Part shown: piece by piece, positions 9,722 to 21,055 of the stretch
How the letters are laid out: each line of letters starts with the position of its first letter
How positions within the stretch are numbered: position 1 is the stretch's first letter
DNA from: Candidatus Staskawiczbacteria bacterium RIFOXYB1_FULL_37_44
Lineage (GTDB): Bacteria; Patescibacteriota; Minisyncoccia; Minisyncoccales; Staskawiczbacteraceae
DNA length: 64,000 nucleotides
Assembly (NCBI GenBank): GCA_001822065.1
Contig: MHPJ01000001.1
Coordinates: 6,870 to 70,869 of the forward strand
Direction: 5' to 3'
Translations under genes and position numbers: made by a program
The notes under the pieces: generated by a model
Seen by the model: the letters and a program-made list of their open reading frames with translations, nothing else
Database searches by the model: none
Told to the model about the DNA's origin: nothing

Positions 9722-9743
9722 CCTTCGACAAGCTCAGGACAAG
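9722..9743. repeat. 'ccttcg..gctcaggacaa' GC-rich repeat, intergenic copy
   Basis: ccttcgacaagctcaggacaag. Related copies at 15861-15883 and 17521-17543. Confidence 0.7.
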
Positions 9744-9746
9744 TAA

Positions 9747-9780
9747 CAAAAAACGGCTCAGTACGTTGAGCCGTTTTTTG
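9747..9780. terminator. Bidirectional terminator between convergent genes
   Basis: An A-run, then acggctca-gtacgt-tgagccgt, then a T-run. Sits between clpB (+) and the ORF at 9787-10563 (-). Confidence 0.8.
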
Positions 9781-9786
9781 ATTGCT

Positions 9787-10563
9787 TTACGGATTTACCG
9801 TCATTGATATTGTGGCTATCGCGCTGTCTAAACTGCCGTCGTTCACTTTAAATGTAAAGCTGTCTGATCCCGTAAAATCTGTTGCCGGAAAATAGGTTAG
9901 ATTTGGAACTGTTCCAGACAATGTGCCGTGGGTTGGGTGTGTTAAAACAGTAAATGTTAGCGCTAAATTTTCAGGATCTGCGCCGGTCAGAGTTATTGCT
10001 TTTGAGGTATTTTTAGTTACGGTTACGCTTTGGGCGTTGGATGTTGGGGCCTGATTGTTAACCTGGACATTTCCCAGTGCGTCAATAAATTTTTGAAGGG
10101 CTGTTTGTTTTGCTGAATTTCTTTGCTGTATTGCAACAAGCAAATCGGCAAGGTATGTTTTTAATGATGAAATTCTTGCAGACTGGTTGCTTGAAGAATT
10201 TATTGCCAAAGTAAATTTGTCTCTCGCGGATTTTTTTGCTGTTTTAAATGCTGTATTCGCATCTTTTATAGCTTGGTTATAAGCTGTTCTTGCAGATTTT
10301 AATCCATTGTTATTTAAGAGTAAATTTACAGAAATTGCAGGCATATTGTCTCCCGATTCTGATCTGCCGATTATATCGCCGGCTATGTTTCCAAAAACTC
10401 TAAACGCGCCTTTTTGCATACTATTGTGCATATTGTTTATACTGAAAGATATTCGGTCTTCACGACCATTATCTTTTGCTTGCGTCGCCGAAGGCAAAGC
10501 GTTAACCCCGATCAAAGCGGCTGCTAAAAGAACAATTGTTGATTTTTTTATTTTGTTTATCAT
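9787..10563 (-). CDS. Secreted protein with C-terminal cadherin/Ig-like domain
   Basis: Signal peptide 'KKSTIVLLAAALIGVNALPSATQA'. C-terminal 'ITLTGADPENLALTFTVLTHPTHGTLSG...DSFTFKVNDG' is typical of bacterial cadherin-like/Ig-like repeats. Confidence 0.6.
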   Translation of the reverse strand: MINKIKKSTIVLLAAALIGVNALPSATQAKDNGREDRISFSINNMHNSMQKGAFRVFGNIAGDIIGRSESGDNMPAISVNLLLNNNGLKSARTAYNQAIKDANTAFKTAKKSARDKFTLAINSSSNQSARISSLKTYLADLLVAIQQRNSAKQTALQKFIDALGNVQVNNQAPTSNAQSVTVTKNTSKAITLTGADPENLALTFTVLTHPTHGTLSGTVPNLTYFPATDFTGSDSFTFKVNDGSLDSAIATISMTVNP

Positions 10564-10623
10564 TTTTTATTTAGATTATTTTTGTTAATATTATATTAAC
10601 GACCTTTATAATATATGTGACGG

Positions 10624-11124
10624 ATGAACTATCAAACTCTTTTTTTGGATGCTTATGAAAAATACGCAGACGATATTTATCGGCATTGCTATTTTAGGGT
10701 GTACAACAAAGAATTAGCCGAAGATATAACGCAGGAAACTTTTATAAAAACGTGGAAATATATAATAGAAGGCAAAGAAATTCAAAACATAAGGGCGTTT
10801 CTGTATAGAGTGGCGGTAAATTTGATTATTGACAATAGCCGGAAGAAAAAAGAGTTGGCGGGTGATGAACGTCTTAATAATATAAGGGCAGGCGAGGATA
10901 CAGAAGATAATATTTTTAACCGTTTTGACGCCAATAGAATAGTAAAACTGCTTGACAAGCTGGCAGAAAACCAAAAGCAGGTAATGGTAATGCGATATAT
11001 AGATGAGTTGAAGCCATCGGAAATTGCAGATATTTTGGGAGAGTCGCCAAACGCGGTTTCTGTGAGAATTAATCAAGCCACTAAAAAATTACGGGAAATC
11101 ATAAATAAAAAAAATGAACAATAA
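10624..11124 (+). CDS. ECF-type sigma-70 family sigma factor
   Basis: Region 2 'LAEDITQETFIKTWKY'. Region 4 HTH 'LKPSEIADILGESPNAVSVRINQATKKLRE'. Confidence 0.85.
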   Translation: MNYQTLFLDAYEKYADDIYRHCYFRVYNKELAEDITQETFIKTWKYIIEGKEIQNIRAFLYRVAVNLIIDNSRKKKELAGDERLNNIRAGEDTEDNIFNRFDANRIVKLLDKLAENQKQVMVMRYIDELKPSEIADILGESPNAVSVRINQATKKLREIINKKNEQ

Positions 11125-11938
11125 CATTAAAAAAATTTTAAAACCAGCCAGGCGAATAAAACTGGAAAAAGAAATTAAAGCCTCTATAAAAGGCGGGGTT
11201 TTGATGTTTATGAAAAATAATCCCTTGACAGAAACTCCAAAATTTGGCTTTTGGAAAATAATATTTTCTCAAAAATTAAAACCCGCTTACATTTCAATAT
11301 TGTCTTTAGTGGCAGTTTTGCTGGTGTCTGGAGCAGTGAGCGCGCAGGCCAGTTTGGCGCTTCCCGGAGATATTCTTTATCCCGTGAAAGTTGGAGTTAA
11401 TGAAAAGGTCCTGCAAGTTCTGGCTTTTTCCGACCAGGCGAAAATAAAATTAAGCGTCCGTTTGGCTGAAACGCGTTTAAAAGAAGCTGAAAAATTGGTG
11501 GTGGAAAACAGGATAACCAAAGACAACCAAATGCAAATTAATAATAATTTTAGCGCAAAAGCAGATGAGGTTTCAAAATCTATAAACAAACTAAATAGAG
11601 AAAAAATGGAGAATAGCGCGCAGAAAATCGCTGATGATTTTAATAAAACTTTAGAAATCCATACCAAAGTTTTAGAAAAAATCCAGCAGGAGAAAGATAA
11701 ATCTGACAAAGCGCGCGATAAAAATCGGGAAAATGTAGACTCTATAATAAACAGAGTAAACAGCGTCAGGGATAAAATTAACGCTGATATAAAAGAAAAT
11801 AAAATCAAAAATGAAAAGAAAGCAGAAGAAATAAGGCAAAAAGCAAATGAGCAAATTCAAAAAATAAAAGATAAGATAGAAAGCAACAAAGCAGAAAATA
11901 ATACTGAAAATAATATAGAAAATAATACTGAAAAATGA
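11114..11938 (+). CDS. Single-pass membrane protein, DUF5667-like (putative anti-sigma partner)
   Basis: Overlaps the sigma gene by 11 nt. TM helix 'AYISILSLVAVLLVSGAVSAQA'. 'LPGDILYPVKVGVNE...RLAETRLKEAEKL' followed by a charged coiled-coil tail. Confidence 0.6.
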   Translation: MNNNIKKILKPARRIKLEKEIKASIKGGVLMFMKNNPLTETPKFGFWKIIFSQKLKPAYISILSLVAVLLVSGAVSAQASLALPGDILYPVKVGVNEKVLQVLAFSDQAKIKLSVRLAETRLKEAEKLVVENRITKDNQMQINNNFSAKADEVSKSINKLNREKMENSAQKIADDFNKTLEIHTKVLEKIQQEKDKSDKARDKNRENVDSIINRVNSVRDKINADIKENKIKNEKKAEEIRQKANEQIQKIKDKIESNKAENNTENNIENNTEK

Positions 11939-11979
11939 GCTATACGTAATTTTCACGATCGTAAATTTCTTGTATAGCT
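11938..11979. repeat. CGATCG-centred palindromic repeat, copy B1
   Basis: agctatac-gtaattttcacgatcgtaaatttctt-gtatagct, with perfectly complementary 8-bp outer arms. Aligns with 12176-12216 and 12822-12862. Confidence 0.85.
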
Positions 11980-12005
11980 GGGAAAACTTGAAAAATAATA
12001 AAAAA

Positions 12006-12040
12006 GGCGTCCCGATCCCATAAGAGGGAGGGACGCTTTT
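12006..12040 (+). terminator. Rho-independent terminator
   Basis: ggcgtccc...gggacgc stem followed by tttt. Sits downstream of the gene at 11114-11938. Confidence 0.7.
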
Positions 12041-12175
12041 GGTCTTTCGCGCAAGTCGGCGTACATTGCCTAAACCTCAAAAATTGCGAGGAATTCTTCG
12101 ACTGTTTTGCAAAAATTATCAAACAATTTCTTGTGATGTCACGACTGTGAGAACTAAGATTTAACTGTATTTTAG

Positions 12176-12216
12176 TTATACAATAAATTCACGATCGTAA
12201 ATTTTACGTATGGCTG
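12176..12216. repeat. CGATCG-centred palindromic repeat, copy B2
   Basis: ttatacaataaattcacgatcgtaaattttacgtatggctg, immediately upstream of a promoter-like motif and the PaaX-like gene. Confidence 0.8.
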
Positions 12217-12217
12217 A

Positions 12218-12232
12218 TATTTGTGATAAAAT
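12218..12232 (+). promoter_or_regulatory. Extended -10-like motif tatttgtgataaaat
   Basis: This 15-mer is identical to 12922-12936 and contains TG-n-TAAAAT. It lies 2 nt after repeat B2. Confidence 0.45.
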
Positions 12233-12252
12233 ATTATAATAACTATTTTAAG

Positions 12253-12792
12253 ATGGCTGCTTTAAAAGAAAAAATATTATTATTGCTTTTTGGCGGGCTT
12301 GCTTTTGGTTGCGCTTATACTCCGCAAAAACAGTGGAAAGTTATTAAAACTATATCTGTTGAATGGAAAAAGATAGATAAAAAAGAATTATTTGCAGAAA
12401 TTCACAGATTGTATAGGTCAAAATTGGTGAAAAGAATAACCAATTCAGACGGAACACTCACGTTTATTTTAACTGAAAAAGGTAAATTAAGGGCCCTTAC
12501 TTATAGTTTTGAACATATGAAAATAGAAAAGAAAGACTGGGACGGCAAATGGCGATTTATTGTTTTTGATGTTCCCGAAAAGTTTAGAACCGGACGAGAT
12601 GCGCTAAGATGGAAAATTAAAAAACTTGGATTCTATGAATTACAAAAAAGCGTTTTTATTTTTCCTTATAAATGCGAAGACGAGATAAATTTTATTATAG
12701 AATTTTTTGGAATAAGAAAATATGTCAGGTATGGAATAATAGATTTTATTGATAATAAGGCGCACTTAAAACAAATTTTTGGGCTAAAATGA
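12253..12792 (+). CDS. PaaX-like regulator (wHTH plus PaaX_C/Cas2-like fold), paralogue of 3036-3563
   Basis: 'DGKWRFIVFDVPEKFRTGRDALRWKIKKLGFYELQKSVFIFPY'. The ATG at 12253 is preferred over the tracked GTG at 12223, which lies inside the promoter-like motif. Confidence 0.6.
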   Translation: MAALKEKILLLLFGGLAFGCAYTPQKQWKVIKTISVEWKKIDKKELFAEIHRLYRSKLVKRITNSDGTLTFILTEKGKLRALTYSFEHMKIEKKDWDGKWRFIVFDVPEKFRTGRDALRWKIKKLGFYELQKSVFIFPYKCEDEINFIIEFFGIRKYVRYGIIDFIDNKAHLKQIFGLK

Positions 12793-12821
12793 GAAAAATT
12801 ATAAAATAATCAGAAAAAACC

Positions 12822-12862
12822 AGCTATACGATAAATTCACGATCGTGAAAATTACGTATGGC
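12822..12862. repeat. CGATCG-centred palindromic repeat, copy B3
   Basis: agctatacgataaattcacgatcgtgaaaattacgtatggc. The core ttcacgatcgtgaa is a perfect 14-bp palindrome. Confidence 0.85.
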
Positions 12863-12921
12863 AGGTTTCTTTATCTTACCCTTACCTTGCCTTTTTATTT
12901 ATTTTTTGTTTATATTTTTTG

Positions 12922-12936
12922 TATTTGTGATAAAAT
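12922..12936 (+). promoter_or_regulatory. Extended -10-like motif tatttgtgataaaat, giving a near-leaderless start at 12943
   Basis: Identical 15-mer to 12218-12232. TAAAAT ends 6 nt before the ATG of the nuclease gene. Confidence 0.45.
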
Positions 12937-12942
12937 GTAGTA

Positions 12943-13512
12943 ATGAATTTCTGGGAAAAGAATAAATTATTTTTTGCAATAATTTTAGGAGCTGTAATAA
13001 TTGGAATTTTTGTTTATTTTAGCTTGGAAAATCAAAAAAAGATTGCTTCGTCGCTCGAAGCTCCTCGCAATGACGTTGTGGGAAAATCCGTGGAGGACGG
13101 GCCTCCCCTGACTGGAACTCCAATAGCTTCCGCGTGCGGGGTACATGAAAATACGTTTGTTACAAAAGTAATTGACGGCGATACGGTTGTGGTTGAGGGA
13201 GGATATCATGTGCGGCTTTTGGGAATGGACGCAGACGAAAAAAATTATCCTTGCTATGAGCCGGCTAAAACCCGACTTGAAAATTTAGTTTTGGGAAAAA
13301 TGGTAAAATTGGAAAAAGACAGAACAGATTTGGATCAGTATGGCAGGTGTTTGCGGTATATTTTTATCGGAAATACAAATATTGGCGCGCAGCTGGTAAA
13401 AGAAGGCATGGCAATTGCCAGATTTTATAATCCCGACATAAAATATAAAACAGAAATTGCCGAGGCCGAAAAGCGGGCGCAACAAAACAAAGCCGGCTGT
13501 AAATGGAAATGA
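12943..13512 (+). CDS. Membrane-anchored staphylococcal-nuclease-like (SNase/thermonuclease) protein
   Basis: N-terminal TM helix. 'VIDGDTVVVEGGYHVRLLGMDADE', 'GRCLRYIF' and 'NIGAQLVKEGMA' are SNase-fold motifs. Confidence 0.8.
   Translation: MNFWEKNKLFFAIILGAVIIGIFVYFSLENQKKIASSLEAPRNDVVGKSVEDGPPLTGTPIASACGVHENTFVTKVIDGDTVVVEGGYHVRLLGMDADEKNYPCYEPAKTRLENLVLGKMVKLEKDRTDLDQYGRCLRYIFIGNTNIGAQLVKEGMAIARFYNPDIKYKTEIAEAEKRAQQNKAGCKWK
13041..13075. repeat. GC-rich 35-bp element (gattgcttcgtcgctcgaagctcctcgcaatgacg) in frame in the nuclease gene
   Basis: 33/35 identical to 13757-13791. It is the reverse complement of the left arm of 16406-16438. Confidence 0.85.
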
Positions 13513-14957
13513 AATTTTTTGAAAAAAATCAAATTTTCGCATTTTTGGCGAGTCTTTCTTGTACTCTTGTTTTAGGCTTTTTTGTTTGGATCGCGTTTTT
13601 GAGTTCAAATAATTATTCTTTTATTTTTAACAAGGTTTTGGGGCAAGCCAATAAAATCGGTTATAAATTTTTTTCGGCAACAGTGAGCTTGCCTAATACC
13701 CAAGTTGAGGAAATAGTTCAGGAAACTGATTCTGCGCAAGATATAGTGCCAAATGAGATTGCTTCCTCGCCCGAAGCTCCTCGCAATGACGAAACAACAG
13801 AACAAGAAAGGCAAAATTTGCTTGATGACATTGCGGAAAAATTAGATGTAATTCAGCAAAAAGTTGATGAACTTGTTGCGCAATCAAAAACCGCAGACGA
13901 ACTGAAAATGGAAGAAGAAATTAAAAAAGACGAGGAAAAAAATACGGTTGTTTGCGCAGGGCAAATAAATATAAATACAGCTTCCGCAGAAGAATTGGAT
14001 AAAATGGCTCAAGTTGGTCCGGTAACGGCTCAAAAAATAATACAAGCCCGTCCATTTTATTCGCTTAATGATTTGTTAAGAGTGGGCGGGATAGGAGAAA
14101 TAACTTTACGAAAAATAATAGAGCAGGGGTGCGCTTATGTTGAATTTGTGACGCCGGCCGTTGCGCCGGCGCAGGTTGTTTATCCAAAAATTTTAATTTC
14201 AGAAGCGCAAATTTTGCCGATTAATCAAAGATTTGTCGAGCTTTACAACTCAAATTCAACAGATATTGATTTGACCAATTGGTATTTGCAAAGGAAAACA
14301 GCAACGGGCGAGGATTATTCAAGTTTTGTTACAAAAAATGATTTTGCGGGAAAAATAATTTTGGCAAATTCATATTTTTTAATTTCCCGGCAAATTGAAA
14401 ATGCCGATATTTTGCAAGAAATAATTTTAAGCGATAACAATTCTTTGGTTCTAAAAAATCCGGCGGGAGATACTTCTGATATTATGGATACCGCCAGCCC
14501 AAGCTCTGGCCAAAGTCTTTGCCTGCTGGACGCATGGGAAGTTTGTTCGCCAACTCCCAAAGCTTCCAATACAGTTTTTACTGAGCCGACTCCCCCGTCC
14601 TCAGATTCAACTTCTCCTGATCCCGATGTAATTTTACCAAGCATTGTAATATATAAAGTAATCGATATGGGCGGAGAATTTAGTATTGATTTGGCATTTT
14701 CAGAAAAAGTAAAGTACGAAATAATTATTGAATTTGGCGAAACTGAAATCAAAAAATGGTCTGGCGAAGCAAAAAATCCTCAACCAAAAATTTGGGATGG
14801 AAAAGATTCTTCGGGCACAATTGTTCCAGATGGCGTTTACACAATTAAAATTGAGATTACAGATTATACTCCAGAAAAAAATTTTGTTACTGACACAAGC
14901 AAAACAATTATAATTGATAATTCTCCAAACCTTGACTCGGGAGATTATAATCAGTAA
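13503..14957 (+). CDS. ComEA-like HhH DNA-binding protein with a lamin-tail domain and a FlgD-Ig-like C-terminus
   Basis: TM helix. 'ININTASAEELDKMAQVGPVTAQKIIQARPFYSLNDLLRVGGIGEITLRKI' (ComEA HhH). 'ISEAQILPINQRFVELYNSNSTDIDLTNWYLQRK' (LTD). 'IWDGKDSSGTIVPDGVYTIKIEITD' (FlgD-Ig-like). Confidence 0.75.
   Translation: MEMKFFEKNQIFAFLASLSCTLVLGFFVWIAFLSSNNYSFIFNKVLGQANKIGYKFFSATVSLPNTQVEEIVQETDSAQDIVPNEIASSPEAPRNDETTEQERQNLLDDIAEKLDVIQQKVDELVAQSKTADELKMEEEIKKDEEKNTVVCAGQININTASAEELDKMAQVGPVTAQKIIQARPFYSLNDLLRVGGIGEITLRKIIEQGCAYVEFVTPAVAPAQVVYPKILISEAQILPINQRFVELYNSNSTDIDLTNWYLQRKTATGEDYSSFVTKNDFAGKIILANSYFLISRQIENADILQEIILSDNNSLVLKNPAGDTSDIMDTASPSSGQSLCLLDAWEVCSPTPKASNTVFTEPTPPSSDSTSPDPDVILPSIVIYKVIDMGGEFSIDLAFSEKVKYEIIIEFGETEIKKWSGEAKNPQPKIWDGKDSSGTIVPDGVYTIKIEITDYTPEKNFVTDTSKTIIIDNSPNLDSGDYNQ
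13757..13791. repeat. GC-rich 35-bp element, second copy, in frame in the ComEA-like gene
   Basis: gattgcttcctcgcccgaagctcctcgcaatgacg. Encodes 'IASSPEAPRNDE', compared with 'IASSLEAPRNDV' in the neighbouring gene. Confidence 0.85.
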
Positions 14958-14966
14958 CGTAAATTT

Positions 14967-16064
14967 ATGGATTTGGAAAATTTGGAAAAAATTTTAGAAA
15001 ATGAGCCGGATTTTCGCTTGAAACAAGCGAATGAAGCGGTTTTTAAAAAATACATTTCCGATTGGAGTGATGCGACTTTTTTTACAAAAGAATTAAGGGA
15101 AAAATTAAACAAAGAATGCCCGCTGGAAATTTTGGCGGAGACATTATTTTCAAAAAATCAAAAAACAAATAATACCCATATTTTAACGACCGTTAAAAAC
15201 GGAGTATCGGGGGCAGATAGTGTGAAGGCTAAAATTACTTTAAAAGATGGTTTGGAAATAGAAACGGTTTTAATGCGCCACGAGGACGGAAGAAATACTG
15301 TTTGTGTTTCTTCTCAAGTTGGATGCCCGCTGGGATGTTTGTTTTGCGCCACAGGAAAAATGGGATTTAAGCGAAATTTGTCGGTTAATGAAATTTTAGA
15401 GCAGGCGATTTTTTTCAATCGCTATTTGAAAAAAATCGCCCTGAGCGAAGTCGAAGGGTCTTCCTTCGGCGTAACCAATGTTACTTTTATGGGAATGGGC
15501 GAGCCGTTTTTGAATTATGAAAATGTTCTAAAGGCAATAAGAATTTTAAACGATAAAAATTATTTCAACATCGGAGTAAGGTCAATTTCTGTTTCAACGG
15601 CCGGCATTGTTGAGGGAATTGAAAAATTTTTAAAAGAAGGTTTGCAGTTGAACTTGGCAATTTCTCTGCACGCGCCAAACAATAAATTGCGAACAGAGTT
15701 AATGCCGATAAGCAAAAAATATAGTTTAGAAAAAGTTTTGAGCGCCGTAGATAATTATATTTTAGCTACAAAAAGAAAAGTAATGTTTGAATATGTTTTA
15801 ATAAAAGACGTAAACGATTCAAAAGAATGCGCCGAAGAATTAGCAAAATTAATGCATAATCCTTCGACTCCGCTCAGGACAAGAAAATTATATTTTGTGA
15901 ACTTAATTTTGTATAATGCAACTGGCACTTTTAAACCATCAACACCTCAACGAGTTGAGGTGTTTAAAAAAATTCTCAAAAAATCCGGAGTCAATTTTGT
16001 CCAGCGCTATCGCTTTGGCGATGATATAAAAGCTGCTTGCGGGCAATTCGCAACATCTAAATAA
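14967..16064 (+). CDS. rlmN: 23S rRNA/tRNA adenine-C2 methyltransferase RlmN (radical SAM)
   Basis: 'CVSSQVGCPLGCLFCATG', 'FMGMGEPF', C-terminal 'AACGQ'. Carries two GC-rich in-frame inserts. Confidence 0.9.
   Translation: MDLENLEKILENEPDFRLKQANEAVFKKYISDWSDATFFTKELREKLNKECPLEILAETLFSKNQKTNNTHILTTVKNGVSGADSVKAKITLKDGLEIETVLMRHEDGRNTVCVSSQVGCPLGCLFCATGKMGFKRNLSVNEILEQAIFFNRYLKKIALSEVEGSSFGVTNVTFMGMGEPFLNYENVLKAIRILNDKNYFNIGVRSISVSTAGIVEGIEKFLKEGLQLNLAISLHAPNNKLRTELMPISKKYSLEKVLSAVDNYILATKRKVMFEYVLIKDVNDSKECAEELAKLMHNPSTPLRTRKLYFVNLILYNATGTFKPSTPQRVEVFKKILKKSGVNFVQRYRFGDDIKAACGQFATSK
15861..15883. repeat. 'ccttcg..gctcaggacaa' repeat copy inside rlmN
   Basis: ccttcgactccgctcaggacaag, read as 'PSTPLRTR'. 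Confidence 0.7.
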
Positions 16065-16159
16065 TCGTGCTATAATTATAAAACGTATTTTTTATTAAAG
16101 AGGCAAAAAGCACTTTGACTTTTTATTTATTTTTTGATAGTTTTATTGAATAAAAAACT

Positions 16160-16672
16160 ATGGAAGATAAAGAAGATAAAATTGTTAAGCTGACAAACGC
16201 GGTTTATAATTTACTGGAATTTTTTCCCCAAGATCCATTAAAAATAAAGATAAAAGATAAGGCTTTGGCAATTTTGGAAAACCCAAATTTTAAAGATGTT
16301 GATATTATTTTGAATTATTTGAAAATTGCAAAATTTCAAGGCTGGCTGAATTCGGTAAATTATTTAATTATTGTTGGAGAGTATGAAAAACTGGCGGTGG
16401 GGCTTCGTCATTGCGAGGAGCGTAGCGACGAAGCAATCCAGAGTGTTAGACTCGCTCGCAATGACGGGGACAAACTTACTCCAAGGCAAACCAAAATTCT
16501 GGAATTTTTAAGAAAAAATAAAAAAGCGCAGGTTATGGACTTACAGGTGGTTTTGCCAAACATCACAAAAAGGACAATAAGGCGGGATTTAGATGAACTT
16601 TTGAAGATAGGACAAATTGAGAGAGATGGGACATTTAATCAAATTGTTTACAAGATTAAGGTGTCCTATTGA
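16160..16672 (+). CDS. Two-domain protein: helical N-domain plus DeoR-type wHTH
   Basis: 'LTPRQTKILEFLRKNKKAQVMDLQVVLPNITKRTIRRDLDELLKIGQIERDG'. The interdomain linker is formed by a GC-rich palindromic insert. Confidence 0.6.
   Translation: MEDKEDKIVKLTNAVYNLLEFFPQDPLKIKIKDKALAILENPNFKDVDIILNYLKIAKFQGWLNSVNYLIIVGEYEKLAVGLRHCEERSDEAIQSVRLARNDGDKLTPRQTKILEFLRKNKKAQVMDLQVVLPNITKRTIRRDLDELLKIGQIERDGTFNQIVYKIKVSY
16406..16466. repeat. MITE-like GC-rich element with 12-bp terminal inverted repeats (cgtcattgcgag ... ctcgcaatgacg), in frame in a CDS
   Basis: The arms at 16406-16417 and 16455-16466 are exact reverse complements. Encodes 'RHCEERSDEAIQSVRLARNDG'. Confidence 0.85.
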
Positions 16673-16710
16673 CTTAATAACGTTTTTAGTATAAAATATA
16701 GAGATAAGCG

Positions 16711-17217
16711 ATGAGTAATTTGAACGAACAATTCGGCGAAATTTATGACCAGTATATTGAGAAAATATACCGTTTTGTTTACTTAAAGGTTAATTCCCAA
16801 GAAATAGCCGAGGATATTACTTCTAAAGTGTTTTTGAAGGGCTGGGAAGCGTTCCAGAGCCCTAAGGAAGAGATTAAAAATCAGGGTGCGTTTTTATACC
16901 AAATAGCCAGAAACGCTGTTGTAGACCATTATAGAGACAAAGGGAGGGCAAAGATGGTTGCAGTTGATGCCAGCTGGGAAATGGCTGACCCTGGGACAAG
17001 CGCTTATGATAAGGCTATTTTAAACGCAGATGTAAACATTGTTAAGGCAGGCATACAAAAGCTAAAAAAAGAACAGCAGGACATAATAATTTGGCATTAT
17101 TTGGAGGATATGCCAATACCGGAAATAGCTGAATTATTAGGCAAGCCGGCTGGCACAGTGCGAGTTATGCTTCACCGAGGTTTAAAAGACCTAAAAGACA
17201 TAGTTCAGGAGTCATAA
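16711..17217 (+). CDS. ECF-type sigma-70 family sigma factor (second copy)
   Basis: 'IAEDITSKVFLKGWE' (region 2). 'MPIPEIAELLGKPAGTVRVMLHRGLKDLK' (region 4). Confidence 0.85.
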   Translation: MSNLNEQFGEIYDQYIEKIYRFVYLKVNSQEIAEDITSKVFLKGWEAFQSPKEEIKNQGAFLYQIARNAVVDHYRDKGRAKMVAVDASWEMADPGTSAYDKAILNADVNIVKAGIQKLKKEQQDIIIWHYLEDMPIPEIAELLGKPAGTVRVMLHRGLKDLKDIVQES

Positions 17218-17232
17218 TAACGCTCGGCAACT

Positions 17233-17303
17233 GTCATCTCCGCGAAAGCGGAGATCCAGAGTAAGTGCATTTGACCATGGATTCCCGCTTTCGCGGGAAT
17301 GAC
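17233..17303. repeat. Intergenic GC-rich element made of two inverted self-hairpin arms
   Basis: gtcatctccgcgaaagcggagatcca (17233-17258) and tggattcccgctttcgcgggaatgac (17278-17303). Shares the gtcat...atccagagt / ...aatgac ends with 16406-16466. Confidence 0.8.
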
Positions 17304-17359
17304 AACAAGAATTGTAACAAATAGCGAGTTTGAGCGTCATACATATATACAGCACAAAT

Positions 17360-18025
17360 ATGACCGAAATAACAGAAAAACAACTTATTTATAAACTCCA
17401 TACTTTGAAAGAAATAAAACCCAGAAAAGAATGGGCTTCTTTGCTTAAATCGCAGATATTGGCGGAGAAAAAAGAAGTTGTTTTACATCAGGCAGGATTC
17501 ACGGATTTTATCAGTGCAGTCCTTCGCTTCGGCTCAGGACAAATTTTCTCCCGAAAATTTGCTTATTCTTTTGCGGCTGTATTAATTTTAATTGCCGGAG
17601 CATTTGGATTGGCAAGGTTATTGCCATCTGGAACAGCGCCTCAAAATTCAACAGCATCATTAACACAGCAAACCAGGACGCAATCTGAAGCAGAAAAAAA
17701 AGTTGTTGCAAATCTAAGCGAAAAAATAAAAGATTTAAAACAGGCTTTAATAGTTAATCCAAAGCAAGATTCGCAAACAGTAAAAGGAATTGCAGATAGT
17801 TTAAAAACATTGGCTGATTTATCTGGGAACGATTTGGATCAAGATGTAGAAGATTTGTATAGGACATTGGTATGGAGCCAGATTTACGATTTACAGCATT
17901 CAACTTTAACAGATAAAGGGAAAAAGGTATTGTCTAAAATAGAGGGTTTAACCGATCAGGAAAAGTATACGGAAGCATTAGAGGAAATTTTATTAATAAA
18001 CAAATCCGATACGTACATAAATTAA
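17360..18025 (+). CDS. Single-pass membrane protein, putative anti-sigma partner
   Basis: Sits directly downstream of the ECF sigma gene. TM helix 'FAYSFAAVLILIAGAFGLARL'. The ATG at 17360 is preferred over the tracked TTG at 17330. Confidence 0.45.
   Translation: MTEITEKQLIYKLHTLKEIKPRKEWASLLKSQILAEKKEVVLHQAGFTDFISAVLRFGSGQIFSRKFAYSFAAVLILIAGAFGLARLLPSGTAPQNSTASLTQQTRTQSEAEKKVVANLSEKIKDLKQALIVNPKQDSQTVKGIADSLKTLADLSGNDLDQDVEDLYRTLVWSQIYDLQHSTLTDKGKKVLSKIEGLTDQEKYTEALEEILLINKSDTYIN
17521..17543. repeat. 'ccttcg..gctcaggacaa' repeat copy inside the anti-sigma-like gene
   Basis: ccttcgcttcggctcaggacaaa, read as 'LRFGSGQI', a different frame from the rlmN copy. Confidence 0.7.
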
Positions 18026-18122
18026 ACATTTGATAAATCGCTAATTCGTTGTTAGTACGTAAAACAATGAGTTAATAAGGTCGACCGATGATAAAGTAAA
18101 AAATAATAAAAATTAAATTTAC

Positions 18123-18174
18123 CCAGTTAAATAGCGCTTCGCGCTAAATTTGCGAAGCAAATTTATTTAACCGG
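18123..18174. repeat. Nested hairpin cluster upstream of the surface-protein gene
   Basis: Outer arms ccagttaaata / tatttaaccgg. Inner hairpins gcgc-ttc-gcgc (18134-18144) and taaatttgc-gaa-gcaaattta (18145-18165). Confidence 0.7.
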
Positions 18175-18193
18175 GGAACAAAAACACAAAAAA

Positions 18194-20200
18194 ATGAGTA
18201 TAAAAAGAACAATTATTACAACCGTAGTCGCTTTGGCTTTGGTTGCAACAGTTGCTCCTGCCGCAGTCCAAGCTGACCAATTGTCAGATTTGATGGCTCA
18301 GATACAAGCTTTGCAAGCTCAATTACAGGCTTTGCAAGGAGGCGCTACACCGGTTCCAACTGGTATAGTTGCTTGTTCAGGAGTAACATTTACTAGAAAT
18401 TTAACAGTTGGCTCAACAGGACAAGATGTAAAATGCTTACAGGTCCTTTTGAACACCAACGGTTATACACTTGCAGCGACAGGAGCAGGTTCACCTGGAA
18501 TGGAAACATCTTACTTTGGTCCAGCGACCTTAGGAGCTGTAAAAGCATTTCAAGTAGCCAAAGGATGGACACCTGCAAATCAGGTTGGCCCATTAACAAG
18601 AGTCGCATTAAATGCTCTTATCTCAGGAACACCGACAACGGGTTTGCCAGCAGGTTGCACATCAACATCAGGATATAGCCCAACAACAGGCGTATCTTGC
18701 GCAACAGGTGCAACAACACCTGGGACAACAACACCTGGAGCAGTTGGATTTATCTCGGTAGCCACATTGGCTGCTTCACCAGCTGATAATGCAAACATTA
18801 CAGCAACATCAAATGTTCCTGTATACGGAATTAATGTTAAAGCAATTAATTCCGATATGGATGTTAATAGCGCCAAGATCGTATTGTATACAACAAAATC
18901 AAGCGCAGTTGAACATCCAGCGACATCAATGACAAATCTTTATGCCTATGATGGAAGCACATTGTTGGGCACATTTCCAATCAATACATCTACAGTCATA
19001 AAAGAAAGCAGCACTTATTACATGATTTTGTCAGGATTCCATTTCTTGGTTCCTGCCAATACCACAAAAGCGCTTACTTTCTCAGCCGATTTTGTTTCAG
19101 GATTGGAAACAGACAGAATATTGGAGATTGCCATGTATGATACAACTGCCATTGGAGCAACCGATGGTTCAGGTGTAAACAGAACATCTGGCTTGACACC
19201 AACATTGACATCTGGAAATCCTGCAGCAAACCAAAGAACACACACCATAAACTATGATGTAGTTGGAACCTCAACAGTGGTAGCAAGCATTGCCGGTTCT
19301 ACTCCAAAAGCAAGTTCTGTTAATGTTAACCACACAGATGGAGTATCAGATGTTCCAATGGCCGTGTTTAACTTCAAATCAACAACAGGAGCTTCTCAAA
19401 TAACCGATTTGGTTATTACAGCTCAAGGAAGCGATGTAGGAGTTGAACAGATTTCTGCTGTAAAATTGTACGACGGTTCAACATTGTTGGGCTCAATAAC
19501 ATTGTCCAGCGCAGTGTCCGGAGCAACAGCAACATTTAGCGACCTTACAATTGATGTTGCAAAAGATGCTACAAAGGTTTTGACTGCAAAAGCAGACATT
19601 GAGTCAGATGTTTTGAGCGATGGGAGTGAATACATAAAATTGGTTATAGCAAATCCAAGCACAGACGTTACTTTCAACAAGCCAAACTTGGCTGCAGCAC
19701 ATCCTACTGCAACATCAGCAGTTGCCGGAAACTTTATGTATTTGTATGATAACGTAGTTGCAACATGGTCACTTGTTAGCGCAACATCCTCATACACTTA
19801 CAACGCAACAACACCATCATCGTCATACACTTCAGGTAAAATTACCTTAAAAGTCCATTCAGATGGTGGAGACACTACAGAACCAGTTGCAGCCGACATA
19901 ACAGTCACTGCTTATGTAGATGGCGTGGCAAATGGCGCAGCAGTTTCTAAGACAATTACATTGACCCCAGACAATACCTCTGACCTCATTGCAAGCGGTG
20001 AGGATACCGAGGTAGTAATTGATGTTTCTGAGCCAAGAGGAGTAACCGCATCTTCAGGTTCTTACTCTGGCACTGGCTTCGTTGACTTCAGAGTCACCAA
20101 CCTTGCTTGGGTAACAACAGATGGAACATATACATCCACTGAAACTGCTCAGACATGGGGATTGGATACATTTAAGACTCCAGCAGTAAACGCTCAGTAA
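18194..20200 (+). CDS. Secreted cell-surface protein with a peptidoglycan-binding (PG_binding_1) domain and a long Thr/Ser/Ala-rich beta-rich region
   Basis: Signal peptide '...VAPAAVQA'. Coiled 'LMAQIQALQAQLQALQ'. 'GSTGQDVKCLQVLLNTNGY...GPATLGAVKAFQ'. Cys-loop 'GCTSTSGYSPTTGVSC'. GC-richer codon usage. Confidence 0.65.
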   Translation: MSIKRTIITTVVALALVATVAPAAVQADQLSDLMAQIQALQAQLQALQGGATPVPTGIVACSGVTFTRNLTVGSTGQDVKCLQVLLNTNGYTLAATGAGSPGMETSYFGPATLGAVKAFQVAKGWTPANQVGPLTRVALNALISGTPTTGLPAGCTSTSGYSPTTGVSCATGATTPGTTTPGAVGFISVATLAASPADNANITATSNVPVYGINVKAINSDMDVNSAKIVLYTTKSSAVEHPATSMTNLYAYDGSTLLGTFPINTSTVIKESSTYYMILSGFHFLVPANTTKALTFSADFVSGLETDRILEIAMYDTTAIGATDGSGVNRTSGLTPTLTSGNPAANQRTHTINYDVVGTSTVVASIAGSTPKASSVNVNHTDGVSDVPMAVFNFKSTTGASQITDLVITAQGSDVGVEQISAVKLYDGSTLLGSITLSSAVSGATATFSDLTIDVAKDATKVLTAKADIESDVLSDGSEYIKLVIANPSTDVTFNKPNLAAAHPTATSAVAGNFMYLYDNVVATWSLVSATSSYTYNATTPSSSYTSGKITLKVHSDGGDTTEPVAADITVTAYVDGVANGAAVSKTITLTPDNTSDLIASGEDTEVVIDVSEPRGVTASSGSYSGTGFVDFRVTNLAWVTTDGTYTSTETAQTWGLDTFKTPAVNAQ

Positions 20201-20324: not shown

Positions 20325-21026
20325 ATGCGCAAAGAACCATATACAGTCGGCGATTTTATTCATGTGTATAATCGCGGAAATCGGAAACAACCAATAGTTC
20401 TTGATACAAAAGATCAGTGGCGCTTTCTTTTGATGCTCCGTTATTTTAACGATGAGCATTCTTCTTCAAATCCTCTGCGTTACCTGTTGAAGTCTGACTT
20501 CAACAGGGCTTTCGAGTGGCCGCCCGATTGGCCGGCGCACAAACCATTGGTCAATATTGTTTGTTTTACGCTTATGCCAAATCATTACCATTTAATTTTA
20601 GAAGAAATTTCAGAGGGGGGCATAACAAAATTTATGAGAAAATTTGGAACAGGAATGACAAATTATTTTAATACAAAACATAAAGAATCGGGCAGATTAT
20701 TTCAAGGGGCGTTTAAAGCAAAAAGAATTGATGCGGAGAATTATCTTTCTTATCTTACAGTATACATTCAAGTTAAAAATGTTTTTGAATTATATGCAGG
20801 CGGGATTAAAAAAGCAGTAAATAATTTTGACGATGCTTTTCGGTGGGCAGTTGAATATCCATATTCCAGTCTTGCCGATTATGCCGATAATCGAAATTCT
20901 CCAATTGTTGAAAAAAGTGTTGCAGGCGGCATGTTTTCTTCTGTTGGAGAGTATCGAAATTTTTCTAAACAGTGTATGCTGAATATGAATTTGCAGGATA
21001 AACTTGGCGATCTCGCATTTGAATAA
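20325..21026 (+). CDS. REP-associated tyrosine transposase (RAYT) / IS200-like Y1 HUH transposase
   Basis: 'HVYNRGNRKQPI', HUH motif 'MPNHYHLILEE', catalytic-Tyr region 'YLTVYIQVKN', 'EYPYSSLADY'. Confidence 0.8.
   Translation: MRKEPYTVGDFIHVYNRGNRKQPIVLDTKDQWRFLLMLRYFNDEHSSSNPLRYLLKSDFNRAFEWPPDWPAHKPLVNIVCFTLMPNHYHLILEEISEGGITKFMRKFGTGMTNYFNTKHKESGRLFQGAFKAKRIDAENYLSYLTVYIQVKNVFELYAGGIKKAVNNFDDAFRWAVEYPYSSLADYADNRNSPIVEKSVAGGMFSSVGEYRNFSKQCMLNMNLQDKLGDLAFE
20483..20507. repeat. REP-like palindrome, internal copy in opposite orientation
   Basis: cctgttgaagtc-t-gacttcaacagg (12-bp arms). Encodes 'LLKSDFNR' within the RAYT ORF. Confidence 0.9.
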
Positions 21027-21055
21027 GCTTGTTGAAGTCAGACTTCAACAAGCTT
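21025..21055. repeat. REP-like palindrome, right copy (15-bp arms)
   Basis: aagcttgttgaagtc-a-gacttcaacaagctt. Sits between the convergent stops of the RAYT gene and the O-antigen-ligase-like gene. Confidence 0.9.

Follow-up and report, generated by a model that had tools for sequence, protein, structure and literature searches.

An in-frame palindrome in a DeoR-like gene of a Staskawiczbacteria genome, probably a decayed inverted dimer of a CGTC-tagged repeat

What a hairpin-forming palindrome is doing inside a protein-coding gene is the question raised by a 64,000-nucleotide stretch of Candidatus Staskawiczbacteria bacterium RIFOXYB1_FULL_37_44 (contig MHPJ01000001.1, positions 6,870 to 70,869), henceforth referred to as the window. 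At window positions 16406-16466, within a gene for a DeoR-like protein, lies the 61-nt element CGTCATTGCGAGGAGCGTAGCGACGAAGCAATCCAGAGTGTTAGACTCGCTCGCAATGACG. An earlier interpretation, referred to here as the sequence-only reading, described it as a complete element resembling a miniature inverted-repeat transposable element (MITE), either tolerated as a selfish insertion or used as a hairpin for translational or mRNA-stability control. The analysis instead favors, with a probability of about 0.8, a decayed inverted dimer of a CGTC-tagged repetitive extragenic palindromic sequence (REP) that is tolerated in frame in the linker of the DeoR-like protein and was later trimmed. The host open reading frame (ORF) and the parts of the element are as follows.

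16160-16672, plus strand: host gene taken from the ORF list, encoding 170 aa with an N-terminal helical domain, a linker and a C-terminal DeoR-type winged helix-turn-helix (HTH)
16406-16441, plus strand: left REP unit, intact, encoding RHCEERSDEAIQ
16442-16450, plus strand: remnant AGTGTTAGA of the spacer between the units, aligned to the spacer AGCATTAGCACTAATT of the 94-nt element in the orthologous locus L001
16451-16466, minus strand: right REP unit, inverted and truncated to 16 nt, with the reverse complement CGTCATTGCGAGCGAG

The palindrome and its host linker

The arms of the palindrome, CGTCATTGCGAG (16406-16417) and CTCGCAATGACG (16455-16466), are 12 nt each, 100% complementary and separated by 37 nt, exactly as first described. 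The element is also G+C-rich as claimed, at 55.7% compared to 32.1% in the remainder of the ORF and 35.7% in the window. RNA folding of positions 16396-16476 gave -35.2 kcal/mol, compared to a mean of -21.8 ± 2.6 for dinucleotide shuffles (z = -5.2), with none of 200 shuffles as stable, which agrees with the strong mRNA hairpin that had been predicted. Exact 12-bp hairpins are nevertheless frequent in the window (22 arm pairs at about 11 loci, versus 1.5 arm pairs in shuffles), and the hairpin alone is therefore unremarkable. The distinguishing fact is that the sequence is repeated: the 12-mer arm occurs exactly four times in the 64 kb (16406 on the plus strand; 16455, 13064 and 13780 on the minus strand), where 0.002 occurrences are expected by base composition. 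No T-run follows the hairpin in the sequence, and the element is therefore not an intrinsic terminator.

The element begins at a codon boundary of the plus-strand ORF and is translated as RHCEERSDEAIQSVRLARNDG, residues 83-103 of the host protein. The HTH_DeoR domain (PF08220) was identified at residues 109-155, passing the Pfam gathering score (28.4 bits against a cut-off of 21, E = 1.4e-6). Here the HTH is C-terminal, and the C-terminal DeoR sugar-binding domain usual in DeoR-type regulators is absent. An AlphaFold2 model, built on an alignment of 41 homologues, placed residues 4 to ~85 (helical) and 108-166 (winged HTH) at a predicted local distance difference test score (pLDDT) near 90, while residues 86-103 are the sole stretch below 50. 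The element-encoded residues coincide with this low-confidence linker, as expected from the claim that the 61-bp unit is read through between the helical domain and the winged HTH. The host protein family is widespread and typical in Parcubacteria, within the Candidate Phyla Radiation (CPR), and in Staskawiczbacteria: several of its 370 homologues bear one of these names. Among 121 homologues the linker ranges from 21 to 109 aa with no conserved sequence, and seven of them carry REP-derived sequence as judged by peptide signature.

Since the linker is hypervariable, almost any sequence could occur there, and a native linker that is palindromic by chance, or an assembly artefact, had to be considered. 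Either is hardly credible given the occurrence of the 12-mer, the G+C content of the element relative to its ORF, and the identity of a 32-mer of the left unit, GTCATTGCGAGGAGCGTAGCGACGAAGCAATC, to copies in unrelated genomes, among them the viral contig L019. Furthermore, window positions 9729-19521 (9.8 kb) are matched at 99.95% identity by L245, an independent contig from a groundwater series (SRR2177968, PRJNA292723), which contains all four CGTC-type elements found in the window, including the one at 16406. A local assembly artefact is therefore excluded, and the window is placed in a groundwater CPR population.

Comparison with CGTC-tagged REPs and other small repeats

The repeat was named by reference to the classification of Di Nocera, De Gregorio and Rocco (2013, BMC Genomics 14:522; PMC3733652), in which most REPs belong to a GTAG-tagged or a CGTC-tagged superfamily. 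A CGTC REP unit consists of an unpaired CGTC (or TGTC or CCTC) tag, a stem nearly always opening with A-T pairs, and a 3-nt CCA tail. Such units form mostly inverted dimers with spacers of 20-100 bp, are patchy among lineages, were reported in five phyla and have no dedicated transposase; no RAYT (REP-associated tyrosine transposase) was found flanked by CGTC units, and the mobilising enzyme was not known (PMC3733652). Stems of 8-9 bp and loops of 4-5 nt characterize the published families, CGTC-1 to CGTC-4. Additional file 3 of the same paper lists dozens of in-frame CGTC REPs, the dimers encoding 20-30 residues, with intragenic peptides such as VIPAKAGI, SFPRKRES, DSRLRGND and VIPGLDPGIH...DGRVKPGHD. 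Rickettsia RPE-6 is equated there with CGTC-1 and RPE-4 with CGTC-4, citing Ogata et al. 2000 and 2002 (PMC3733652).

The left unit of the window element follows this plan, as determined from its sequence, the consensus of 346 collected instances and the published description. Its CGTC tag occupies 16406-16409, an interrupted stem-loop (ATTGC-GA-G-GA-GCGTAGC-GA-C-GAA-GCAAT) occupies 16410-16437, and a CCA(G) tail occupies 16438-16441 (CCA at 16438-16440). In the right unit the tag and the 5' part of the stem are kept, with the CGTC complement at 16463-16466, and the tail is deleted; this remnant codes for (L)ARND plus the first base of G103. The unpaired tag, the stem opening with AT (CGTC-AT TGC...GCA AT-CCA) and the CCA tail are shared with CGTC REPs and place the element, by these signatures, in the CGTC-tagged superfamily. 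Also shared are dispersal in multiple copies (four CGTC-type loci in the window), arrangement in inverted dimers and occasional in-frame intragenic copies.

The unit departs from CGTC-1 to CGTC-4 in having a 5-bp stem, a GA/GAA internal loop and a covarying central hairpin, often GCGNAGC, with 3-20 variable nt between conserved flanks. Because its stem is 5 bp and interrupted, instead of 8-9 bp closed by a 4-5-nt loop, the unit falls outside the four families as these are characterized in the text and Additional file 3 of PMC3733652. The peptides RHCEE, SDEAI and PRNDG are likewise absent from that paper's list of intragenic REPs.

The distribution of the subfamily was determined by scanning sequence collections with the pattern GTCATTGCGAG-N(2-20)-CGAAGCAATC. 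The core was observed in at least 120 GTDB genome stretches, representing more than 10 phyla among the matches listed, which include Alpha-, Gamma- and Deltaproteobacteria, Bacteroidota, Chloroflexota, Cyanobacteria, Planctomycetota, Patescibacteria, Firmicutes and others. Bradyrhizobium, Sphingomonas, Rhodospirillales, Rickettsiales, Pedobacter, Mucilaginibacter and Flavobacterium are among these matches, as are Chloroflexus, Anaerolineales, Microcoleus, Melainabacteria, Sporomusa and Helicobacter rodentium. At least 120 IMG/VR viral contigs also carry the core (31-72% G+C among the matches listed), and it was present in 14 plasmids, each time outside annotated genes, with hosts including Methylosinus, Novosphingobium, Methylobacterium, Aulosira and Legionella. 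The range thus exceeds the five phyla published for CGTC REPs, extending to CPR/Patescibacteria and to viral contigs.

In the 346 instances, the base preceding GTC was C in 54% and T in 42% (together 96%), and GCAAT was followed by C, then by C (55%) or T (42%), then by A (42%) or C (45%). An inverted partner was present in 151 instances, most often 22-32 nt away, and the other 195 were single units. The commonest centres yield GCGNAGC, a known stable mini-hairpin sequence of the d(GCGAAGC) type. At least 4 bp extend from the closing G-C pair in 46 of 126 distinct centres, versus 3.4% of shuffles, and 35 different stem sequences were counted; the central hairpin appears to covary, its sequence being variable and its self-complementarity kept.

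Searches of reference databases did not return a known family. Rfam gave no family at gathering score across the whole window, with chance-level matches only around the element, and no matches on canonical copies in five viral loci. Seven REP-encoded peptides had no Pfam or NCBIfam match at E ≤ 10, blastn of cultured phage records in INPHARED gave no match to the repeat, and a literature search by sequence strings returned unrelated primer matches only. The concatenated REP peptide, compared with a large protein database, matched seven short hypothetical ORFs, the query being too short for significance there.

A classical MITE would be a deletion derivative of an insertion sequence (IS), flanked by a target-site duplication and bounded by terminal inverted repeats that a DDE transposase recognises. 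Exact 12-bp terminal inverted repeats, small size and multiple copies fit such an origin, and bacterial MITEs found in genes (Correia/NEMIS, ERIC and Nezha; PMC10969869) are similarly small, non-autonomous, inverted at their ends, co-transcribable, RNA-folding and occasionally in frame. No target-site duplication was found, however: direct repeats are absent from the flanks (ggggctt before and gggacaa after the element) and from the other three loci. The supposed terminal inverted repeats are formed by the outward-facing ends of a pair of inverted REP units, in the manner of a REPIN (a REP dimer that folds as one hairpin). Each arm is itself an autonomous tagged hairpin, and single units, each half of the supposed MITE, stand alone at 13040 and 13756 and in the 195 single instances noted above. 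No transposase gene recurs within 1.2 kb of 354 copies, and no IS with matching ends was seen in the 244 loci examined, although no systematic IS search was made. A parent IS and a target-site duplication thus distinguish the published MITEs from the window element, and we consider a classical MITE very unlikely.

Two other systems are closer. Like the Rickettsia palindromic elements (RPEs), the element is a palindromic repeat in frame in a protein gene of a small-genome bacterium, tolerated because it encodes a surface or linker peptide; the host phylum and the sequence subfamily differ, and no NCBIfam or Pfam RPE-type model matches the window peptides. It behaves like an RPE and is not an RPE by sequence. 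RPE-1 is longer, at about 100-150 bp. Like REPINs, the element consists of two inverted REP hairpins with a short spacer, foldable as one long hairpin, and its singlets resemble decayed dimers. GTAG-tagged REPINs are said to be mobilised by RAYT transposases, a result attributed to Bertels and Rainey in 2011. The tag here is CGTC instead of GTAG, and the repeat crosses phyla whereas REPIN populations are lineage-specific. A tblastn search of the 64-kb window with IS200 TnpA and E. coli RayT, which is a weak test, gave no significant match. The only protein clusters recurring within 1.2 kb of the 354 copies were phage structural genes in one group of related phages.

Three further candidates were considered and set aside. 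Among 2,500 ORFs near copies there was no GIY-YIG-like motif to indicate a GIY-YIG nuclease partner. On inspection, the GAG...CGAA core lacks the hammerhead core CUGANGA/GAAA, and it has no 3-nt bulge as expected of a K-turn.

Rickettsia RPE-4 and RPE-6 are precedents for CGTC REPs read in frame, and what appears new here is modest, namely the CPR host and the interrupted-stem subfamily. It is tentatively suggested, with more doubt than confidence, that the GTCATTGCGAG-hairpin-CGAAGCAATC units may constitute an undescribed fifth CGTC REP family, pan-bacterial and also carried on phage contigs. Its 21 near-invariant flanking nt are kept across genomes of 31-72% G+C, around a central hairpin that covaries freely. 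From this pattern it would follow that some trans-acting enzyme or host factor with a wide distribution recognises the units, and horizontal spread by phages would be suggested as well. REP-rich CPR genomes, tiny and transposase-poor, would then be a tractable place to seek the CGTC REP mobilisation machinery. Independently of family rank, CGTC-type REPs are extended to Patescibacteria and to many viral contigs by a very widely shared subfamily, whose means of spread is the question that the 2013 paper left open (PMC3733652).

Copies in viral contigs show arrangements of their own. In the related phage contigs L007, L010, L033, L040, L008, L091, L093 and L109 the unit lies directly upstream of ribosome-binding sites, tag first. 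All six copies in L019 are oriented opposite to those of the L007-type contigs; orientation is uniform within genomes and not between them. Direct tandem arrays are present in some viral contigs (L050 at 2695-2818, L024, L025 and L114), with four copies at 33-nt spacing in L050; for CGTC REPs, head-to-tail (direct) dimers are described as negligible and grouped elements as rare (PMC3733652). Among CPR relatives, convincing units were found in just five of 80 orthologous loci (433 kb), and L248 and L262 hold seven REP units each, in 7.7 and 3.2 kb.

Orthologous linkers and the likely history of the element

The linkers of orthologous genes were compared at the position of the element. Their contents, with the folding energy of the hairpin where calculated, are listed below.

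L001 (P0002, 71% identical): 94-nt full dimer at the same codon position, with a decayed left unit, spacer and complete right unit; -47.9 kcal/mol
Window: the L001-type element minus 33 nt (11 codons) of spacer and right unit; -35.2 kcal/mol
L248 (P0004): 82-nt dimer, then an ordinary ancestral-type linker tail NQPKEPIAPILSDNVSP; -44.4 kcal/mol
L247 (P0005): only spacer and right unit, the right unit complete; no hairpin; -18.4 kcal/mol
L262: full CGTC-1 dimer (VIPAKAGIQ...DSRLRGND); -51.6 kcal/mol
L246 (P0006): decayed CGTC-1 dimer (VISAKTDIQ)
L004 (P0003, 79% identical outside the linker): no element; an unrelated AT-rich linker of 26 aa

Longer, shorter and different versions of the element are thus present in orthologues, and the linker has been occupied by at least two different REP families among relatives. 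The 94-nt version at the same site in L001 shows that the window element, which lacks 33 nt, is not complete as had been supposed. The sequence-only reading also held that an insertion would be contradicted if orthologues all had equivalent-length linkers of unrelated sequence and the repeat were absent elsewhere. Most orthologue linkers are indeed equal or longer with unrelated sequence; the repeat is, however, present elsewhere in the window and in hundreds of other genomes, and the insertion reading therefore stands. A tolerated, selfish-type palindromic insertion, one of the two options originally offered, fits this evidence.

The other option and main rival, a functional cis-regulatory mRNA structure, is improbable; it would stall ribosomes between one domain and the next, or govern RNase cleavage or stability of the DeoR-like/sigma-factor transcript. 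The strong predicted fold and the position exactly at the domain boundary would suit such a role, as would the general view that REPs act as RNA elements at gene ends (PMC3733652) and the unusual conservation of the REP part between L001 and L247. The structure nevertheless varies within the gene family, from the full palindrome (L001, L248) through the half element of L247 and another REP family to nothing at all (L004 and most others), and in the window itself most of one arm is deleted. The same sequence occurs in unrelated genes, spacers and phage contigs, and the hairpin has no T-run behind it. A conserved control hairpin thus lacks support: orthologues do not preserve the structure, and its sequence is a generic one.

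Co-option at the protein level was also weighed, for example binding of a metal or partner by the His/Cys/acidic RHCEE motif, maintained by selection. The frame is open, the peptide is hydrophilic, and the frame giving RHCEE... and ...ARNDG is the same in the window, L001 and L248. Against this, RHCEE has become RHGVG in P0002 and is missing in P0005, the segment is predicted at pLDDT below 50, and the motif is absent from most family members. Two of the three tag-strand frames are open (RHCEERSDEAIQ and VIARSVATKQS), and on the complement strand the frame IASSLRSSQ* closes at TGA; the frames in use, RHCEE.SDEAI (tag strand) and ..ARNDG (complement), contain no stop. Common ancestry of the insertion and the presence of stop codons in other frames account for the frame being shared, and co-option of the peptide is accordingly given little credence.

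The reading that fits best is that of a selfish repeat, tolerated in its host gene and in decay, and the feature is thus real but for the most part ordinary. On this account a dimer of ~82-94 bp would have entered, by a transposition-like insertion, the DNA coding for the disordered segment that joins the helical domain to the winged HTH, perhaps through single-stranded hairpin recognition by analogy with GTAG REPs and RAYT. Three conditions would have allowed it to survive: the reading frame was preserved, the frame used contains no stop, and the hydrophilic peptide falls in a region with hardly any constraint on length or sequence. Copies that broke the frame or brought in a stop would not persist. 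An in-frame deletion of 33 nt may then have removed most of the right arm and spacer, shortening the linker from 42 to 31 residues, closer again to the length usual in the family, and weakening the hairpin from about -48 to -35 kcal/mol. The instability of long perfect palindromes in DNA would favor, and probably drove, internal deletions such as the 33-nt one. For protein and mRNA alike the element would be nearly neutral under selection.

Several observations weigh against this reading. Searches of neighbouring genes, of GIY-YIG motifs and, more weakly, by tblastn yielded no mobilising enzyme for CGTC REPs, and the subfamily departs from CGTC-1 to CGTC-4, whose stems run uninterrupted for 8-9 bp and close with loops of 4-5 nt. 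Between L001 and L247, 56 of 57 nt of the spacer and right unit are identical, compared to ~73% nucleotide identity in the remaining gene, and the left unit in the window is perfectly canonical. Together these features hint at sequence constraint, gene conversion or recent re-insertion and turnover, as opposed to free decay; if the fifth family exists, the near-identity of L001 and L247 would reflect ongoing turnover or gene conversion and not ancient decay. The tag-to-tag lengths of 61, 94 and 82 nt are all 1 mod 3, and the true inserted unit may therefore differ from the tag-to-tag stretch, or later indels may have restored the frame. No clean empty site was found at the DeoR-like locus, where an alignment of orthologues had been expected to reveal one; in L004, the nearest orthologue that lacks the element, the linker is about as long, and the element may therefore have replaced an ancestral linker and not simply been added to it.

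The extent of the inserted DNA and the number of insertions bear on the same history. A G+C-rich 12 nt upstream of the element (TCGGCGGGGCTC-like) is common to the window, L001 and L248, and may have been inserted together with the element or be left over from an earlier one. In a neighbor-joining tree, weakly resolved given the short protein, L004 lies inside the window/L001 clade and L248 and L247 lie elsewhere; the tree is compatible both with one origin followed by losses and with several insertions into a permissive site.

The relatives together provide a series within one linker, comprising a full dimer, an internal deletion and a half element, with another REP family at the same site. 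The series illustrates how selfish hairpins come to be confined to disordered parts of proteins, where they are subsequently trimmed. For annotation, the odd G+C-rich hairpin-forming segments seen in CPR proteins (RHCEE.SDEAI..., ...PRNDG, VIPAKAGIQ, DSRLRGND) are accounted for as linker or loop insertions derived from repeats, as opposed to conserved motifs.

Other repeats in the window

Scanning the 64 kb identified three complete units of the 16406 type and one truncated unit, with no others. Two of the complete units stand alone, and a dimer of a different CGTC family lies downstream of the DeoR-like gene.

13040-13075, minus strand: single complete REP unit of the same subfamily as the 16406 element, in frame IASSLEAPRND, just after the N-terminal hydrophobic helix of the SNase-domain ORF 12943-13512
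13756-13791, minus strand: single complete REP unit of the same subfamily, in frame IASSPEAPRND, after the N-terminal hydrophobic segment of the ORF 13503-14957 (HHH_3 and lamin-tail domains)
17232-17304, unstranded: intergenic inverted CGTC-1 REP dimer between the sigma-factor gene (stop codon 17215-17217) and ORF 17330-18025

The gene call and the Pfam SNase assignment for ORF 12943-13512 were taken from the 99.95%-identical contig L245. The units at 13040 and 13756 are 35-nt variants with two extra bases, which shift the IASS frame to the APRND frame; the TGA stop is thereby escaped. The three copies that are read in frame in the window all occupy segments likely to be flexible, one in the interdomain linker and two just past N-terminal hydrophobic helices.

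The dimer at 17232 reads as a textbook CGTC-1 dimer. Its left unit is TGTC-ATCTCCGC-GAAA-GCGGAGAT-CCAG, followed by an 18-nt spacer, and the inverted partner, as reverse complement, is TGTC-ATTCCCGC-GAAA-GCGGGAAT-CCA. The dimer has an 8-bp stem, a 4-nt GAAA loop and a CCA tail, folds at -41.4 kcal/mol, and opens its stem with AT (ATCTCCGC/GCGGAGAT) in accordance with the CGTC REP definition. The homologous spacer 3' of the sigma gene in L004 (2044-2083) lacks the dimer, giving a clean comparison of a filled and an empty site that can be taken as evidence of gain or loss of a CGTC REP in this lineage.

The four CGTC-type REP loci are confined to 4.3 kb (13040-17304), and none was detected in the other 60 kb. 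Genes within this cluster are SNase-like, ComEA-like, RlmN-like, DeoR-like and sigma. The RlmN-like radical-SAM ORF (14967-16064) contains a G+C-rich hairpin-like insert, CCCTGAGCGAAGTCGAAGGG (ALSEVEG), at 15439-15458 in a surface loop. The corresponding loop in L248 (4024-4088) and L262 (1225-1301) holds in-frame CGTC-1/CGTC-3-like REP dimers (CHSREGGNP...WIPDQVGDD), and this loop is a second site that is recurrently occupied.

A G+C-rich motif, TCCTTCG..C(T)CAGGACAA, with a GTCCT/AGGAC stem, occurs at 15860-15885 and at 17512-17540, where it is translated in frame as PSTPLRTR and LRFGSGQ in two different ORFs. The motif is probably a further small repeat family; LRSGQ-like peptides were observed in the linkers of host-family members P0011, P0013 and P0045. 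Near-identical perfect palindromes, GTTGAAGTC(T/A)GACTTCAAC, are present ~540 nt apart at 20483-20508 and 21024-21053, and may act as terminators or delimit a small inserted segment.

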